In this document: in pieces, positions 4,283 through 10,707 of the stretch
Layout of the letters: the number at the start of each line of letters is the position of its first letter
Numbering within the stretch: position 1 is the stretch's first letter
Assembly: GCA_045594545.1 (NCBI GenBank)
Contig: JAZNYQ010000073.1
Coordinates: 1-50,587, forward strand
Source: Eubacteriales bacterium
GTDB taxonomy: Bacteria; Bacillota; Clostridia; Oscillospirales; UMGS1783
Reading direction: 5' to 3'
DNA length: 50,587 nt
Translations under genes and position numbers: made by a program
Notes under the pieces: model-generated
The model's input: only the letters and a program-made list of their open reading frames with translations
What the model was told of the DNA's origin: nothing
Databases searched by the model: none

Positions 4283-6301
4283 TTATCCTTTCAGCCGCTT
4301 CCATAGCGCTGATTGCGTTAAATTTTTCTTCTCGTTGCAACAGTTGACTAAAATGCGAACCTGCCGCCCCATCGGATGCAACTCCGCCATCTTCAATTCA
4401 CTGAGCACCCCCAGCGACAGCATCAACTGCGAGTAATGAAAAGGCTTGCCGAACGCCCGCGAAATGCGCCGCGCCATTACCGACGGATAGCGGGGCGTAT
4501 CCGCATCCGCCTCCCCCATCGTTCGCAATAAATAACTGTATACGTCGATCACGTCCTTGCGGTCGGGTATCGCCGCTTCCGGCAAACGGTCAAGCTCTCC
4601 CGCCATAAACTGCTCGTATTCCCGCTCATATCCTTCCGCCAAACAGCATTGCGATACCTCGATCTTCTTGATGATCAGTTGTAACTGCTCGGAATGTTTA
4701 CTCGTATTAACGTCCAGCGCATATACAATATCCACCAGATCCCCCGCCGAGCATCGCAACTCCCGCAACGTGTGTCCAAACATCAGCCCCGTAAACCGAC
4801 GCCCGTTCTTTTCTAAGGATAAGCGCAAATGCCTCACATTCGCCAAAGGCATCAATTCTTCCAATAACACCTCTTTGGTCACGAACAACGGCTGCGGATT
4901 TTCCATACCGTACGGCTCCAGTTTTTGAAGCTGATGCGCCAGATTCATGGTGATCTGCTCCACATCCAGCACCGCCGAAACCGATAGCCCCGGCGCATAT
5001 CCCGCATCCGAACAGACCCGCTCGGCCCGATGAATCAACGCCTCTTTCAAGGCCGGTATGTTTTCTTCTTTCACCGTAAAGCCGGCCGCCAGTTCATGCC
5101 CGCCGAATTCATCCAGCAGATGAGCACTCTCCCCCATCGCCGCAAACATATTAAATCCCTTCACACTGCGGGCACTGCCCCGTCCGATTCCGTGGCTTAC
5201 CGATACGATCACACACGGTAAGGCATACCGATCCACCAACCGCGACGCCACAATACCGGCAATGCCGTTGGGCCAGTCTTCCACGCAAAGGAATAACAAC
5301 CGCTGTCCCTCTTGGTTCGGCTCCTGCTCCACCATCGTCGAGGCCGCTTCAACCGCGCCGCTCTCGATCTGTTGCCGCTCTCGGTTGAATTGCATCAACT
5401 TCTCCGCGTATTGATGTGCCTGCGCCGCTTGATCGGTGCATAACAACTCAACGGCCAACTCCGAATGATCCACCCGCCCCGCCGCATTGAGCCGAGGCGC
5501 GATCACAAAACCCGCACAGGATGCCGTAATGGCACGGTTGAAGTTGTAACTTGCACTGCGAAGCAAAATGTCAATCCCTAATCGCCGCTTGCTCTGCATC
5601 TGCCGCAGTCCCATTTTGACTAATGAACGATTCTCATCGGTCAGCGGCATGGCATCGGCCACCGTACCGATGGCCACCAGATCACAATACCGATCCAGCT
5701 CCTCAGTCGGATTGCCCCGCAGCGCCGCCAGCGCGCAAATGAGTTTGAGCGCCACACCCGCGCCCGATAAATGCGGATAGGGATAGGTCTCTCCCTCTCG
5801 TTTTGGATCAAGCACCGCATATACCTTTGGCAATACCGATTTACATTCGTGATGATCGGTCACGATCACATCCGCCGCCATATCCCCAACGCCCTCACTC
5901 AGCGCCGAGATCCCGCAGTCCACCGTAATGATCAGATCAATCCCTTTCGTGATCTCCGAAACTTCGCCGCGCCAAAAGGCGGCAATCCGATCGGTAGGGG
6001 GAATGTAGTACTGCACATCCGCACCGACCGAGCGCAGATACTGAACCGTCACCGCCGTGGCCGTAATGCCGTCGGCATCCGAATCGCCCACGATCAAGAT
6101 CTTTTCCTGTCCATCCACCGCCCGCCAGATGCGTTCTACCGCCCGCGGCATATCCCGCATCGTCATCGGGTCGTGGAAGATCACATGGGAATCCGAAAGA
6201 AAATCACGGGCATGGTCAACCGAGTCAATGCCCCGCTCGATTAAAATATCGGCTAAAATACTGTCGATGCCGCAAGCATCCGCTAACATCTGACCGTCCA
6301 T
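4283..6301 (-). CDS. recJ: ssDNA-specific exonuclease RecJ
   Basis: GDSDADG, ITVDCGI, TDHH, IGTVAD, PRLNAAGR, GSARS, FGGHELAAG, LEPYGMENPQP. Confidence 0.93.
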   Translation of the reverse strand: MDGQMLADACGIDSILADILIERGIDSVDHARDFLSDSHVIFHDPMTMRDMPRAVERIWRAVDGQEKILIVGDSDADGITATAVTVQYLRSVGADVQYYIPPTDRIAAFWRGEVSEITKGIDLIITVDCGISALSEGVGDMAADVIVTDHHECKSVLPKVYAVLDPKREGETYPYPHLSGAGVALKLICALAALRGNPTEELDRYCDLVAIGTVADAMPLTDENRSLVKMGLRQMQSKRRLGIDILLRSASYNFNRAITASCAGFVIAPRLNAAGRVDHSELAVELLCTDQAAQAHQYAEKLMQFNRERQQIESGAVEAASTMVEQEPNQEGQRLLFLCVEDWPNGIAGIVASRLVDRYALPCVIVSVSHGIGRGSARSVKGFNMFAAMGESAHLLDEFGGHELAAGFTVKEENIPALKEALIHRAERVCSDAGYAPGLSVSAVLDVEQITMNLAHQLQKLEPYGMENPQPLFVTKEVLLEELMPLANVRHLRLSLEKNGRRFTGLMFGHTLRELRCSAGDLVDIVYALDVNTSKHSEQLQLIIKKIEVSQCCLAEGYEREYEQFMAGELDRLPEAAIPDRKDVIDVYSYLLRTMGEADADTPRYPSVMARRISRAFGKPFHYSQLMLSLGVLSELKMAELHPMGRQVRILVNCCNEKKNLTQSALWKRLKG

Positions 6302-6416
6302 GATCTTCCCCCTTTCCCAAAGATATATATAATATACCCAATTATAATATTATAAAATTATATCACACATCTTTCCCTCTTTCAACACAAAAATATAAAG
6401 AAAAAGAGGCAGCCGT

Positions 6417-6680
6417 TGAGGTGCACTCCGTAAGGAAGTGCACCTCAGCTAAGTTTGCCCTTTGGGGCACGTGAAGTGATCTTCGATCGTGAAGTTGTCC
6501 TATGGACAGTGAAGTTTCGCTTACGGCGAAATGGGCAGGCTTAACTTCACATGGATATCCATCCATACTTCACTGCGAGTGAAACGAGCCACTTCACTTT
6601 TGCGTCAGCAAAAATTTCACGTAACGAGCAGGACAATTAAATATATAATTGTTTTGACAAAAGTGTCATTTTTGCGTTAC
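6417..6680. repeat. Non-coding element of GTGAAGT/ACTTCAC heptamers separated by short hairpins
   Basis: GTGAAGT at 6471, 6489, 6509; ACTTCAC at 6544, 6567, 6591 and ATTTCAC at 6614; each is followed by a small inverted repeat; 11-bp hairpin at 6417-6447. Confidence 0.85.
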
Positions 6681-6684
6681 ATAC

Positions 6685-6721
6685 AAAAACGGAGACAACT
6701 TCTTTACGAAATGTCTCCGTT
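6685..6721 (-). terminator. Intrinsic terminator of the 6726-7169 gene
   Basis: AACGGAGACA...TGTCTCCGTT stem with T-run on the minus strand. Confidence 0.7.
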
Positions 6722-6725
6722 CAGG

Positions 6726-7169
6726 CTACCCCCTATACTGTCTTTTGGTTTGCGGCATCCGATCAAGAATCATCTCTTTTACCTCTTTCTCGCACTTGTA
6801 TGCCTGTATTCGATACTTCCCGTGTGCCGTACGAACGGTGAGTATATCATCTGCGGCATACACATCGGTAATCTCCCGATACGCAACCGTAAACGCCACA
6901 CCCTTTTTCACCAATCGCCCCATCGAAACCCCTTTTATATACTGCTCATGCAATTCCACATACGATTTCTTCATGAACGTTACATCGGCAATCTGATCGA
7001 TAAGAAACAATCCCCAAACACACATCCCAACAACAGCATACTCAAACGAAACAAACAGAACGATCGCTATCTGCACAAGCCATCCCGGTATAAGAATCCA
7101 AGCCAGCGACTTGTAAATGGGGTAATCAAATTTATCCTTTGTTGAAATCAGGATTCCGTCCCTCGCCAT
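6726..7169 (-). CDS. Small membrane protein (2 predicted TM helices plus a beta-rich, PH-like soluble domain)
   Basis: Start reassigned to MARDG (7169) behind a GGAGGGG SD; two hydrophobic segments. Confidence 0.7.
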   Translation of the reverse strand: MARDGILISTKDKFDYPIYKSLAWILIPGWLVQIAIVLFVSFEYAVVGMCVWGLFLIDQIADVTFMKKSYVELHEQYIKGVSMGRLVKKGVAFTVAYREITDVYAADDILTVRTAHGKYRIQAYKCEKEVKEMILDRMPQTKRQYRG

Positions 7170-7183
7170 GGCTTCCCCTCCAA

Positions 7184-7340
7184 ATAAAAAAGTGTGCCCC
7201 AACAAAGGAGCACACCGAAAAAGCGCTTCCCTCATTGTTGTCACACAAGCTTAATTCCATTTCGGTATAAGCAAAAAGAGAAAACACTTTTTACCACAGT
7301 ATTTTCCCGAAATGGAATAAAAATATTTACTTGTGTGACA
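7184..7340 (-). ncRNA. Candidate ~155-nt structured sRNA or attenuator leader
   Basis: Starts right after a consensus sigma-A promoter; nested stems TGTCACACAAG/CTTGTGTGACA and ATTCCATTTCGG/CCGAAATGGAAT; ends in the terminator GTGTGCTCC-loop-GGGGCACAC-TTTTTT. Confidence 0.6.
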
Positions 7341-7478: not shown

Positions 7479-8531
7479 GTGAACGATATTTTTGAAGAGT
7501 ACCTACGCGACGAACCGCAGAAAAAGGAAAAAGGATATGCCTGGCATACCGCCATCGGTCTTCAGGCGGTCGACGGGCTGAATACCAGTGAATATTTGTT
7601 GGAAACGGCAAAAAAAAATATTGACGGAGATATTACCTTTGAACAGGCAAATCATCTGATTCACAGTTATTATAAAGAAAACATAGCACATACCGATACC
7701 GACCGAACCGAGGAAGCCGATAAGGTTTCGGTTCGCATTGCACAGTTGTTATCCGAAAAGTCTTTTGTCTTTTCCCCTGCTCAGTACATCTCCATTCATT
7801 CACAGTTGTTCAGCGGCATTTACAAACACGCCGGCAAAATCAGAGATTATAACATCACTAAAAATGAATGGGTTCTTGACGGGGACACCGTAATGTATGG
7901 GGGCGCCTTAGATCTCAAAGCCACCTTGGAGTATGATTTCTCAACTGAAAAAGCCTTTTCGTACAAAAATCTCTCGATGGATGAAATCATAAGACACTTA
8001 GCCGTATTTGTTTCTCATCTTTGGCAGATCCATATTTTTTCCGAGGGCAACACCAGAACAACCGCCGTTTTCTTTATTAAATATCTTCGCACCTTAGGCT
8101 TTGATGTTACCAATGACATTTTTGCCCAAAACGCATGGTACTTCCGCAACGCTTTGGTGCGTGCCAACTATACCAATCTAAAAAAAGGCATTCACGAAAC
8201 TACTGAGTATTTGGAACTGTTTTTGAGAAATCTCTTGCTCGGCGAAAACCACCCCCTCAAAAATCGCGATATGCACATTAGTGGTTCACTCTCCATCCCA
8301 AAGTGCCAAGACGAAATTACAAATGTCACTTTGGATGTCACTTTGGACGAAATGCAGGTTTTAACCTTACTTAGGCAAGACGGAAAACTGACTCAAAAGA
8401 AAATTGGGGAACAGATCGGCAAATCGGATAGAACCGTTAAACGAATTACCGCATCTCTCGAAGCCAAGAAATATATAGAACGAATAAACGGCAAACGTTT
8501 CGGATATTGGAAAGTAAATATTGACCGGTAG
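7479..8531 (+). CDS. Fic-domain protein with N-terminal VbhA-like region and C-terminal wHTH
   Basis: Fic motif variant HIFSEGNTRTTA; N-terminal AIGLQAVDGL; C-terminal HTH (TQKKIGEQIGKSDRTVKR); AT-richer than flanks. Confidence 0.88.
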   Translation: MNDIFEEYLRDEPQKKEKGYAWHTAIGLQAVDGLNTSEYLLETAKKNIDGDITFEQANHLIHSYYKENIAHTDTDRTEEADKVSVRIAQLLSEKSFVFSPAQYISIHSQLFSGIYKHAGKIRDYNITKNEWVLDGDTVMYGGALDLKATLEYDFSTEKAFSYKNLSMDEIIRHLAVFVSHLWQIHIFSEGNTRTTAVFFIKYLRTLGFDVTNDIFAQNAWYFRNALVRANYTNLKKGIHETTEYLELFLRNLLLGENHPLKNRDMHISGSLSIPKCQDEITNVTLDVTLDEMQVLTLLRQDGKLTQKKIGEQIGKSDRTVKRITASLEAKKYIERINGKRFGYWKVNIDR

Positions 8532-8575: not shown

Positions 8576-9742
8576 TTATATGCCTAATATTTTAAGGATA
8601 TCTAATAATTCATCCCGTGTGGTCTGCAGTTCCCATATTTTGTCGCCCGTGTCCACCAGCAGTTTGTGCTGATTGGTTATGGTAATGGTACAAGACAGTT
8701 TTGGGTTGGCGCTGATACTGCCGAGGTTACCCGCATTAACAGGACCGTGATATTCCTGCGCCGGCTGGGCGGCAATATAATCGGCAAACATAGTAATAAC
8801 CGATTTCTCGATCATCGAAGCCCGACTCATACCGAAATCAACAAACACGGCGTGCGCCTGCTTGATCTCCTGTGCGATACTCAAAGAAAATTCATCGGGG
8901 TCGGTCACCTCCACGGCGGGCTGACTCGCCCCTGCCCCGCTCGATTCCTGCGACAAATGCGCCTCGTACCCCAGCGAGAACAACCAGCTAAACAAACTAA
9001 ACACCAGCACACCGCCCACCAACAACCAAATGCGCAGATTTTGCTTCCTGTTCAGTTTCTCTTCCAGACTCTCTTTCGGCTCGTCCTCTTGGTCATCTTC
9101 AAAATTTTCCTGCAACCGCTCCAGCACACCCGCCTCTACCGATTCGGGCAACATCTCGTACATCGGCTCGGGTACGACCGCCTGTAAAGCCTCATACCTT
9201 TCCAAACAAGCCGAACAACCCTCAACGTGCACCTCAAAATCCATTCGCTCGGCGCGGGACAGTTCGTTATCCAGATAGTAAGGCATCATCTGCCGATATG
9301 TATCACAAGGATCCCCCGACGGCAGTTCGCCTATCAACGCCTCGCGGGCAGACAATAACAATTCAGCCACTTTTTCGCGCGAAATTGCCATTTTTTCGCC
9401 GATTTCCTCATAAGAAAGGTTAAAAATCTGGCGCAAAATGAGCGAAATCTGCTCATTTTCCTGCAATTTCAGCGCATTTCGATACCAATTTGGGCTCTCT
9501 TTTGGCAATTTTGCCACCAAAATACGGAAAAAAGCACGCACAACATCGGCCTCTTTCCCCACATTTCCCAGATGGAGATACCCCTCTGCAAACACATCCT
9601 GCGTACGGCGGATCGCTTCATCTGCATCCATTCCTACCTGCAAAAACACACCATAAACTGCCGACTCATAGCGGGTGATCAGATCCGCATAGGCTTTCAT
9701 GTGCCCCGCGCGGATGCGTTTTACTATATCCAGATCGGTCAA
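8576..9742 (-). CDS. ECF sigma-like domain fused to zinc anti-sigma (zf-HC2) domain, TM helix and extracytoplasmic domain
   Basis: TTG start overlapping the dusB stop with GAGAGGG SD; sigma r2-like N-terminus; r4 LSYEEIGEKMAISREKV; ZAS C...HVEGCSAC; TM WLLVGGVLVFSLFSWLF. Confidence 0.8.
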   Translation of the reverse strand: MTDLDIVKRIRAGHMKAYADLITRYESAVYGVFLQVGMDADEAIRRTQDVFAEGYLHLGNVGKEADVVRAFFRILVAKLPKESPNWYRNALKLQENEQISLILRQIFNLSYEEIGEKMAISREKVAELLLSAREALIGELPSGDPCDTYRQMMPYYLDNELSRAERMDFEVHVEGCSACLERYEALQAVVPEPMYEMLPESVEAGVLERLQENFEDDQEDEPKESLEEKLNRKQNLRIWLLVGGVLVFSLFSWLFSLGYEAHLSQESSGAGASQPAVEVTDPDEFSLSIAQEIKQAHAVFVDFGMSRASMIEKSVITMFADYIAAQPAQEYHGPVNAGNLGSISANPKLSCTITITNQHKLLVDTGDKIWELQTTRDELLDILKILGI

Positions 9743-10707
9743 AATACATCCCTCTCTTCGAATTCCTCTGTTATATACGGCTCCAGTAATTCTTCCAACT
9801 GCCGATAAGTCGTCACCCGACACACGGCATCCCGCAAGATCGCCGCATCGGAAAATCCCTTGATATACCAAGCCGAAAACTTACGGCTCTCGCACATTCC
9901 CGTGCGCTCGCCCTTATGTTCACACAACCGCTTGGCATGGAGCAGCGCCGCCGCCAGCCTGCGGTTTGCCGTAATTTCCTCGGGCGTTTCGCCCCGCGCT
10001 AAGGCTTTGAGCCGACGGAAGAGCCAAGGATCGCCCAACGTGGCCCGACCGAGCATCAGCCCCGCCGCGCCCGTATCGGCCGCCGCCACGGCACTGTCCC
10101 AATCGCGAATATCGCCGCTGATGATCACCGGCACCGACACGGCCTGTACCACCGCCTGCGCCACCGTATAGTCGGCCTTGCCGCTATACTGTTGTTTTAC
10201 CGTGCGGGGATGAACGGTCAATTCTTTAGCCCCGCTCTCCTGTAAGATCTTAGCAAATTCAGGTGCGCAAATGGACGTATGATCCCAGCCTGAACGAAAC
10301 TTCACGCTGACGGGAATCTCGGTTGCTTTCGCCACCGCCTCGCACACCCTTCCCGCCAACAGCGGATCTTTCATCAAGGCGCCGCCGTCGCCGTTGCCGA
10401 TGATCTTACCCATGGGACAGCCCATATTGATATTGATCCAATCGGGCGCATACTCGGCACAGACACGGGCGGCATAGGCCATGGTATCGGGATCGTTGCC
10501 GAAGATCTGGATATGGATCGGCCGCTCCTTTTCTGCAAATGCCATGAGCGTATGGGTTTTTTTATCTTTGTAATAGATGCCTCTGGAACTGACCATTTCG
10601 GAATAGGTCACATCCGCCCCGCAATCCCGCACGATCCGGCGGGTGGTAGCATCGGTGATTCCGGCCATGGGCGCCATATGCAGAGGCGGCAAAATAAATT
10701 TCTCCAT
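9739..10707 (-). CDS. dusB: tRNA-dihydrouridine synthase DusB
   Basis: APMAGITD, ININMGCP, PVSVKFRSGWD, HPRT, GLMLGRA. Confidence 0.95.
   Translation of the reverse strand: MEKFILPPLHMAPMAGITDATTRRIVRDCGADVTYSEMVSSRGIYYKDKKTHTLMAFAEKERPIHIQIFGNDPDTMAYAARVCAEYAPDWININMGCPMGKIIGNGDGGALMKDPLLAGRVCEAVAKATEIPVSVKFRSGWDHTSICAPEFAKILQESGAKELTVHPRTVKQQYSGKADYTVAQAVVQAVSVPVIISGDIRDWDSAVAAADTGAAGLMLGRATLGDPWLFRRLKALARGETPEEITANRRLAAALLHAKRLCEHKGERTGMCESRKFSAWYIKGFSDAAILRDAVCRVTTYRQLEELLEPYITEEFEERDVF

Follow-up and report, generated by a model that had tools for sequence, protein, structure and literature searches.

What is the ladder of heptamers and small hairpins that stands between recJ and an unnamed open reading frame (ORF) in the genome of an uncultured gut bacterium, and how did it come to be there? 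The locus lies in contig JAZNYQ010000073.1 of an Eubacteriales bacterium, which was analysed as a single stretch of 50,587 bases (the window, whose coordinates are used throughout). The original prediction had placed at 6417-6680 a strand-symmetric series of GTGAAGT and ACTTCAC words with self-complementary spacers, and had taken it for a candidate new element resembling repetitive extragenic palindromic (REP) sequences or MITEs (miniature transposable elements with inverted repeats). We found that the true unit is 304 bp long (6418-6721), has no ORF of the PF05635 family, shares its arms with many other copies that match the catalogued Gut-1 motif, and sits, as sister copies do, in the apex of a host hairpin; fuller relatives are linked to one companion gene. 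It is very probably a gene-less mobile member of a family of insertable cassettes of uncultured gut Clostridia. Below, labels beginning with C are contigs of the source genome (G000), those beginning with L are loci with PF05635 genes or arrays, and G003, G005 and G007 are congeners.

The element is inserted in the tip of a terminator hairpin

Three genomes of the same genus (contigs G005:C62, G007:C32 and G003:C121) align to both flanks of the element without the approximately 300 bp between them. Their empty site is an unbroken hairpin followed by a run of T on the minus strand, directly after the stop codon of the unnamed ORF, which encodes 172 aa. A hairpin and T-run in this position mark the intrinsic terminator of the ORF, and the element lies in the loop of that hairpin. 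Both halves of the split stem, which reads on the minus strand, are still present in the window: the left half at 6406-6414 (GAGGCAGCC on the plus strand) pairs with the right half at 6724-6732 (GGCTACCCC), as the alignment with the empty sites revealed. The comparison of filled and empty recJ loci that had been proposed as a check thus defined the ends of the element and identified a terminator hairpin loop as its target.

One contig of public run X2 also lacks the element, joining position 6412 directly to 6717 and skipping 304 bases. The word CCGTT (6413-6417, repeated at 6717-6721) fits either side of this joint. The flanks of the contig are near-identical, differing in 4 of 711 bases to one side of the joint and in 19 of 432 to the opposite side. 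Other copies, in run X1, lose their similarity at exactly 6418 and 6721. Because the X2 joint skips 304 bases and the X1 similarity ends at these positions, we delimited the unit as 6418-6721, which extends it about 40 bases beyond the end originally given and adds an end hairpin at 6689-6720. X1 is an RNA library (0.07 of words) and X2 is of unknown kind (0.31); both were used as contigs, which are silent on strand, ends and level.

Precise filled and empty sites were found for the window copy, for two gene-less sister copies and for one gene-carrying copy described below. The sister copy at C37:4722-5075 is absent from four of the five congeners searched, and that at C100:2864-3228 from two of the five. 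Both of their empty sites are perfect terminator hairpins, with the elements lying between the two stem halves, and another sister copy, in C79, is flanked by the complementary 9-mer halves GCGGTCTGC and GCAGACCGC. All four copies that end in the type of hairpin found at the left end of the window element (H7; window, C37, C100 and C79) are consequently known to lie inside a hairpin. Full-length copies 73-90% identical to the C37 element were found at other loci in four congeners.

The element has the features of a MITE in that it is small (304 bp), lacks a transposase gene, occurs in multiple copies and has both filled and empty sites; its two end hairpins (6417-6447 and 6689-6720) repeat each other imperfectly in inverted orientation, and a flanking repeat accompanies them. 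We found no autonomous partner with the same ends; the fuller copies carry PF05635 only, and DDE, serine and tyrosine recombinases were not searched for. RVT_1, which would indicate a route through reverse transcriptase like that of diversity-generating retroelements (DGRs), gave no matches in the source genome.

The leading proposal of the original prediction was a different one, namely that a REP- or REPIN-like element was moved as single-stranded DNA by a REP-associated tyrosine transposase (RAYT) or an IS200-type Y1 (HUH) enzyme. The copies are indeed multiple, intergenic and rich in hairpins of a DNA-type signature, and the short constant word beside each hairpin is a formal likeness to REP hairpins, which have a conserved tetranucleotide beside them. 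However, searches for Y1_Tnp (PF01797) gave no matches in the 98%-complete source genome, whereas the positive control gave matches in 6 of 14 reference genomes; a REP/REPIN system with its RAYT was rejected on the same lack of PF01797 matches in that genome. Only PF05635 travels with the arrays, and imperfect terminal inverted hairpins together with a short flanking duplication differ from the IS200/REP pattern. We therefore consider movement by such an enzyme extremely improbable.

The arms match the Gut-1 motif and recur throughout the genome

Arm A of the element (6446-6520, plus strand) matched the Rfam family Gut-1 (RF01706) over the full model, positions 1-77, with 50.0 bits and E = 1.8e-8, a score equal to the family cut-off of 50 bits, and arm B (6539-6622, minus strand) matched it with 28.1 bits. 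Membership in Gut-1 is borderline, because a default gathering-threshold Rfam scan of the whole window listed no families, nor any rRNA match. The claim of a new family was nonetheless overturned by a match at the cut-off, a finding that had been named beforehand as one that would tell against it. The window element is a member of a part-catalogued family and not a new kind, and it provides a clean case with exact ends and empty alleles.

To our knowledge, Gut-1 has no known function. In the motif table of Weinberg et al. (2010; PMC2864571), it is rated as certainly RNA ('Y'), not cis-regulatory and 'human gut only', and the same source counts it among the motifs known from environmental sequence only. 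The window element shares with the motif described there a run of at least three small hairpins, free in sequence, with a constant heptamer resembling GUGAAAU between them, and an origin in gut-derived uncultured bacteria only. It differs in that the Rfam model covers one arm of about 77 nt, whereas the window unit of 304 bp has two inverted arms, a centre complementary to the start of the arm, two end hairpins and insertion polymorphism, and fuller copies are linked to a protein gene. The heptamer also differs, being GTGAAGT in the window element and ATGATAT, GTGATAT, ATGATG, GCGAAAT or TGAAT in other families of the same genome. Finally, PMC2864571 lists the motif as a non-coding RNA.

The source genome (1.73 Mb in 128 contigs, 98% complete) contains 45 RF01706 matches at E <= 10, eight of which reach the cut-off; seven copies other than that of the window score 52.9-61.3 bits. 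Opposite-strand pairs are common among the matches, as are positions close to the end of a small contig. These 45 array matches and the filled and empty sites bear out the description of the element as multi-copy, non-autonomous and MITE-like. When the copies were compared with one another, they sorted into families of one design but with different linkers: GTGAAGT, ATGATAT, GTGATAT/GTTATAT, ATGATG, GCGAAAT and TGAAT. Two arrangements were seen: a sense arm, a 35-base centre and an antisense arm (window, C79 and C10:26193), or an antisense arm joined directly to a sense arm (C10:21077, C55:222 and C85:10103). The genes that flank array copies are ordinary housekeeping genes. Across the order, 29 of 61 genomes have RF01706 matches, in a patchy distribution with up to 37 per genome. 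Our literature search found no paper that ties Gut-1 or hairpin arrays to a four-helix-bundle gene, and Gut-1 appeared only as a catalogue entry.

Fuller copies carry a four-helix-bundle gene

A tabulation of four-helix-bundle genes near other copies, one of the checks suggested at the outset, gave the key result of this work, a link between the arrays and one gene. In C85, where the arms (linker ATGATAT) flank a gene, the ORF between them encodes 116 aa and matches PF05635, '23S rRNA intervening sequence protein', with E = 2.9e-21; it also matches TIGR02436, 'four helix bundle protein', with a sub-threshold resemblance to the DGR protein Avd. The source genome contains eight PF05635 matches. 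An array stands directly upstream of the gene in C10 (GTGAAGT), C78 (ATGATG) and C6 (TGAAT; the gene is 5'-truncated), and tandem heptamer runs flank the gene in C15. By eye, four of the six heptamer families of the source genome include a gene-linked copy.

The association extends beyond this genome. Among the same 61 genomes of the order, 27 have both Gut-1 and PF05635, 2 have Gut-1 only, 6 have PF05635 only and 26 have neither; because related genomes are not independent, we give no P-value for this co-occurrence. At 30 PF05635 loci from 28 genomes, a strict detector found hairpin arrays at 12 and Rfam Gut-1 matches at E <= 0.01 were present at 10. An exact-hexamer criterion (at least two per strand and at least five in total in the flanks), which was picked after the data had been seen, was satisfied at 26 of the 30 loci versus 7 of 55 control windows, and the remaining 4 loci also have arrays by eye; a heptamer count allowing one mismatch was too noisy relative to controls. 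Several loci, including L083, L084, L086, L092, L098, L108, L109 and L111, lack hairpins and have their heptamers in plain inverted tandem runs.

These loci usually begin with a tRNA and a terminator; the sense arm, the centre and the antisense arm come next, then a sigma-70-type promoter, a ribosome-binding site and the gene, whose stop codon is directly followed by the start codon of the next gene. The best Gut-1 match lies upstream on the strand of the gene in L088, L097, L099, L101, L102 and L107. A tRNA gene is present within 1.5 kb at 16 of the 30 loci, mostly upstream and on the strand of the gene, and downstream in L085 and L096. Side-by-side inspection of 34 proteins listed with their heptamers indicated that related proteins tend towards related heptamers. 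The closest solved relative of the four-helix-bundle protein is 2RLD (E = 2.4e-24), with five chains in the entry, and a Xanthomonas homologue is cited in PMC4990558 as a homopentameric toroid.

Other tandem heptamers were also encountered. Downstream of the PF05635 gene of L098 (G002:C27) are heptamer arms of the TAACTGA type; TAACTGA repeats are described in PMC4679880 as abundant and intergenic in marine Beggiatoaceae. Term searches in the main text of two papers on heptamer repeats (PMC4679880 and PMC4692102) found no mention of the PF05635 family.

A gene-carrying cassette is also present or absent as a unit

The gene-carrying copy with a precise empty site is at C10:25824-26369, where 546 bp comprising array and gene are absent from G003, G005 and G007; in these genomes the empty site is the stop/start overlap of two genes. 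Approximately 800 bp from this empty site, G005:C27:2171-2345 holds an inverted GTGAAGT array without a gene. At a site between a tRNA gene and a nitroreductase gene, G003:C213 has tRNA, array, gene and nitroreductase in that order, and the source genome keeps half of the array only, which we read as loss of the gene at this site. Gene-less copies of the antisense-sense arrangement retain sequences that flank the ORF in C85.

In C78 (G000:C78:637-1791), a cassette of the ATGATG family, made up of terminator, array and gene, is bracketed by a 20-bp direct repeat of the 3' end of the adjacent tRNA gene, and looks from its sequence like an integration at a tRNA 3' end. In G000:C10:17882-21620, a GH2 beta-galactosidase gene is flanked by hairpin arrays. 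A block of about 3.8 kb containing this gene is missing from G003 and G007, replaced there by 136 and 77 bases, respectively, and hairpin arrays may mediate the gain or loss of such cargo genes. At C10:21000-21620 and C4:5860-6420, tandem units of about 230 bp were seen in which neighbouring units differ in their heptamer. Each unit is framed as TTTTTATATAAGG, a small hairpin, an antisense arm, a sense arm and a GAAACC..GGTTTC hairpin, and short tandem runs of GGTAAGA-like heptamers precede the units.

Hairpin composition favours a role at the DNA level

All of the hairpins and heptamers of the predicted ladder are present in the sequence. Counted on the two strands, the window has eight copies of GTGAAGT in its 50,587 bases, where shuffling predicts 4.27, and six of the eight GTGAAGT/ACTTCAC words fall within the 127 bases from 6471 to 6597, three per strand. 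When a 309-base unit was folded, z-scores relative to shuffled sequences were -8.2 for RNA of the plus strand, -7.2 for RNA of the minus strand and -10.4 for DNA of the plus strand, and none of 100 shuffles folded as well in any of the three tests. The minimum-energy folds pair GTGAAGT with ACTTCAC and let the hairpins branch off, in agreement, at the level of energy prediction, with the stacked-junction ladder proposed earlier.

The earlier suggestion that structure rather than sequence is conserved was upheld across the family: 103 of 111 spacers are distinct, and perfect hairpins are far more frequent than in shuffles. A perfect hairpin of at least four pairs is held by 86 of 111 real spacers versus 166 of 2,220 shuffled ones, and one of at least five pairs by 61 of 111 versus 27 of 2,220. 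The hairpin occupies the entire spacer, and its loop is closed by a 5'C...G3' pair in 75 of 86 cases. The polarity of the loops likewise persists across 23 elements. On the strand reading A(C/T)TTCA(C/T), loops are G...A in 36 of the 54 hairpins of one arm, and those of the other arm are the mirror image, T...C, in 35 of 47; each strand therefore has one 'good' arm, as had been stated for the window copy. Mini-hairpins of the GCGAAGC type recur among the elements, and C-GNA-G hairpins are unusually stable in DNA.

In 101 hairpins of the 23 elements, we counted 522 Watson-Crick pairs, 5 G-T and 2 A-C, by a scoring that penalised non-Watson-Crick pairs and under-counted weak wobble at stem ends. 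In gene-carrying copies, the array lies between the terminator and the promoter of the gene, outside the transcript of the gene. Because G-T pairs are few, loops are strand-symmetric and the array stands outside the gene's transcript, we favour a two-strand role, and we lean towards the view that the arrays act at the DNA level. The DNA-level substrate of the original prediction thus fits better than a one-strand RNA, in that pairing is nearly pure Watson-Crick and the strands are alike; signs of RNA remain, and they have to be weighed.

If Gut-1 were a structured non-coding RNA, it could gather proteins in the manner of a sponge or scaffold, or it could be processed by RNase III and so insulate the transcript of the host, as with rRNA intervening sequences; DNA mobility would then be secondary. 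Consistent with this are the score of arm A at the RF01706 cut-off, the certainly-RNA rating given by the discoverers (PMC2864571), the strong RNA folds of both strands, a promoter-like site inside the element that reads through the arms, the related copies present in contigs of the metatranscriptome run (X1), where DNA carry-over is possible and strand and ends are not visible, the two G-U pairs on the plus strand in the centre pairing of the window element, and the cleavage of rRNA intervening sequence (IVS) stems by RNase III (PMC4990558). Yet only 5 G-T and 2 A-C were found among 529 stem positions, without strand bias; the same design on both strands lets no single sense strand stand out; the array of gene-carrying copies lies upstream of the promoter and downstream of the terminator; and the RNA-library contigs are silent on level as well. 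Natural RNA helices with such sequence turnover usually have many more G-U pairs, and we know of no special RNA stability of the UUC and UGC triloops that the hairpins have on the Rfam strand. On balance, an RNA gene appears unlikely.

A role in DNA could also be a regulatory one. The arrays might be operator or decoy sites at which the protein binds double-stranded heptamers and represses its own promoter, and gene-less copies would then be either relics without effect or decoys that titrate the protein, and would have spread through recombination and not by active transposition. In L088, L099, L100 and L101, the proximal arm ends in a linker that overlaps or adjoins the -35 region of the gene promoter, and omega of pSM19035 is a precedent for a small repressor that reads heptad arrays. 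However, operator sites would leave unexplained the perfect, ever-changing palindromes between the heptamers, the precise hairpin-apex insertions at four of four sites, and the 73-90% identical full-length copies at unrelated loci in other congeneric species, and we regard this explanation as quite improbable.

A model for the cassette

Taken as a whole, the window element is probably best explained as a gene-less, non-autonomous cassette whose arrays work as DNA and whose heptamers may form a docking track for a ring-shaped protein. A full-length cassette comprises an end hairpin or terminator, an arm of four to five heptamers each with a perfect mini-palindrome, a centre that is an inverted copy of the first 11 bases of the arm, an inverted arm, a sigma-70-type promoter and a gene. 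The gene encodes a PF05635/TIGR02436 four-helix-bundle protein, of the family present in ORF-bearing 23S rRNA intervening sequences and distantly related to Avd. The window copy has lost the gene and kept both arms and the two inverted end hairpins. We propose that the arrays are the cis-site of the cassette, acting as folded or two-strand DNA, and that the four to five heptamers per arm would be the docking track for a ring-forming four-helix-bundle protein supplied in trans; for the GTGAAGT family, the gene at G000:C10:25870-26154 may be the master copy. Cutting and joining would be performed by a host or unlinked enzyme and not by one encoded in the cassette, and the complex would enter the apexes of DNA stem-loops.

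Docking of the four-helix-bundle protein on the heptamers is a tentative element of this model, and somewhat doubtful. A more far-reaching version is rather unlikely in its complete form. In it, Gut-1 is not an RNA gene but the hairpin-spaced form of the heptamer track around four-helix-bundle (S23p/Avd-like) genes; pentamer rings of the protein would dock on four to five heptamers per arm of folded DNA and deliver the cassette, and in trans its gene-less derivatives, into stem-loop apexes. If it were true, three orphans, namely Gut-1, the IVSs of rRNA and a very large protein family of unknown function, would share a single mechanism and a testable function, and the stem-loop targets would be terminators here and rRNA helices in classical IVSs.

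The signs of RNA set out above weigh against the docking-track model, as do several further points. The search for enzymes (Y1_Tnp and RVT_1, in one genome) identified none able to move the element, and we are aware of no activity known for the four-helix-bundle family. The length of the flanking duplication is ambiguous, with 5 letters at the window and 2-3, with a mismatch, at C37 and C100, and comparison with these two copies suggests a real target duplication of 2-3 bp. The heptamer follows the protein clade imperfectly: GTGAAGT arrays accompany two protein clades (those of C10 and L088) when the 34 listed proteins are compared by eye. As for the ladder itself, its outermost rung would join CTAAGT to ATTTCAC, which are not complementary, and the linker variants of L101 show no compensation from one rung to the next; inspection for compensating linker variants between the arms found none that was convincing, the first left and fourth right linkers of the window matching at 4 of 7 positions and L101 being mixed. 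Because the outermost rung is unmatched and the variants are uncompensated, the pairing of arm with arm rests on energy and not on covariation.

Comparison with intervening sequences and other mobile elements

Close parallels to a cassette of this kind come from IVSs. As described in PMC4990558, an IVS replaces the small tetraloop of an rRNA helix with an extended stem-loop closed by inverted repeats, the IVS of Coxiella has tandem heptamer repeats in variable number just upstream of its ORF, and IVSs are regarded as selfish, with an unclear origin for which past transposition is one hypothesis. The window element resembles the helix-45 23S IVS of Coxiella burnetii, as presented there, in its length of a few hundred bases, its closure by inverted repeats, its replacement of the apical loop of an existing stem-loop and, in fuller cassettes, an ORF of the same S23p/PF05635 four-helix-bundle family with heptamers beside it. 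It differs from an IVS in that its host stem-loop is an mRNA terminator and not an rRNA helix: the element stands between a protein ORF and recJ, and not in 23S helix 9, 25 or 45. The window copy also has no S23p/PF05635 ORF, although sister copies in C10, C78 and C85 have one, and its heptamers are spaced by mini-hairpins.

MITEs and BOX-type repeats, such as pneumococcal BOX, are small intergenic sequences that lack genes and occur in multiple copies; they have inverted ends, a short flanking duplication, a modular build and a strong fold. The window element shares all of these features, the fold being predicted. Unlike them, it has a four-helix-bundle protein as its only linked gene, internal hairpins that are conserved as structure, and a hairpin apex as target; we know of no transposase with ends that match it. 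Insertion in the loop of an extragenic palindrome is also seen with IS1397 and ISKpn1, IS3-family elements with their own DDE transposase that insert into REP palindrome loops, whereas the window element encodes no transposase.

Gut-1 has been in Rfam since 2010 without organism, context or function. It now has hosts (uncultured gut Clostridia), an anatomy, proven presence and absence at the same sites, a target at the tip of terminator hairpins and a single companion gene. Free-living copies, whose filled and empty sites are clean between close relatives, make the decades-old question of IVS origin testable. For annotation, it matters that short-read assemblies are interrupted by the arrays, which can also be mistaken for sRNA genes.

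Anatomy and neighbourhood of the window element

The element begins with the end hairpin H7 (6417-6447, plus strand), which by sequence and predicted fold has a GTAA loop on a stem of 13 pairs with a single bulged A; the same hairpin also terminates the sister copies in C79, C100 and C37. In arm A, the Gut-1 'sense' arm, linkers alternate with mini-hairpins: a degenerate CTAAGT at 6449-6454 is followed by GTGAAGT at 6471, 6489 and 6509, and the spacer palindromes are TGCCC/GGGCA, GATC/GATC, TGTCC/GGACA and TTCGC/GCGAA.

The centre segment GGGCAGGCTTA (6533-6543, plus strand) is, by eye, complementary to 6450-6460 over 11 pairs, two of them G-T on the plus strand; its partner consists of the tail of the first linker and the 5' half of the first hairpin. 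This inverted repeat is general: in 22 elements, the median number of perfect pairs is 11, formed by at least seven different sequences, versus a median of 6 with centres swapped between elements, and the set includes L123 and L199, which were mis-windowed and scored 6 and in which about 12 and 9 bases, respectively, pair by eye. The centre pairing lies outside the Rfam RF01706 model.

Arm B repeats arm A in inverted and diverged form and has the linkers ACTTCAC at 6544, 6567 and 6591 and ATTTCAC at 6614. Its spacers are ATGGAT/ATCCAT, GCGAG-TGAAA-CGAGC, which is self-complementary through tandem G-A pairing only, and TTTTGC/GCAAAA. A tandem G-A spacer (CTCG...CTCG) occurs at the same position in C79, in C10 and in several loci of other species.

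To the right of arm B, the predicted fold contains a branched GTAACG...CGTTAC stem (6621-6684, 64 bases; the GTAACG-CGTTAC part spans 6621-6680), which sits where full-length relatives have their promoter and four-helix-bundle gene. Within it lies the promoter-like site mentioned above (minus strand, 6669 to 6640; ATGACA-18-TATATT, 10/12), which reads through the arms towards recJ. The element closes with the end hairpin H1 (6689-6720, minus strand), identified by sequence and fold as an imperfect inverted copy of H7 and followed by TTTTTG on the minus strand. A hairpin and then a T-run on this strand mean that the upstream ORF still meets a terminator-like hairpin, and H1, terminator-like by eye, can take the place of the split terminator; a terminator scan of 6200-6850 called no terminator, the H1 stem having a bulge. 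An insert that brings a hairpin of terminator type and a promoter-like site immediately upstream of recJ could change the expression of this DNA-repair gene.

The neighbours of the element, both on the minus strand, are recJ (4283-6301), with DHH, DHHA1 and RecJ_OB domains, and the unnamed 172-aa ORF (6726-7244). Just downstream of the element, at 6357-6385 on the minus strand, is a strong promoter-like site (TTGAAA-17-TATAAT with TG, 11/12). It reads on the recJ strand, is kept in the genomes with empty sites, and is likely the recJ promoter, spared by the insertion. Just upstream of the locus, the window encodes a Fic/DOC protein fused to a winged-helix domain (7479-8531, plus strand) and a second fusion, in which a sigma-70 region-4 protein is joined to a zf-HC2 anti-sigma finger (8576-9871, minus strand). 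Between 7186 and 7307, a segment that is single-copy in the source genome, run X2 showed a summed depth of 235-573 and many loose ends; this high depth probably comes from a short conserved or repeated piece of other organisms in the X2 sample and is unrelated to the element.

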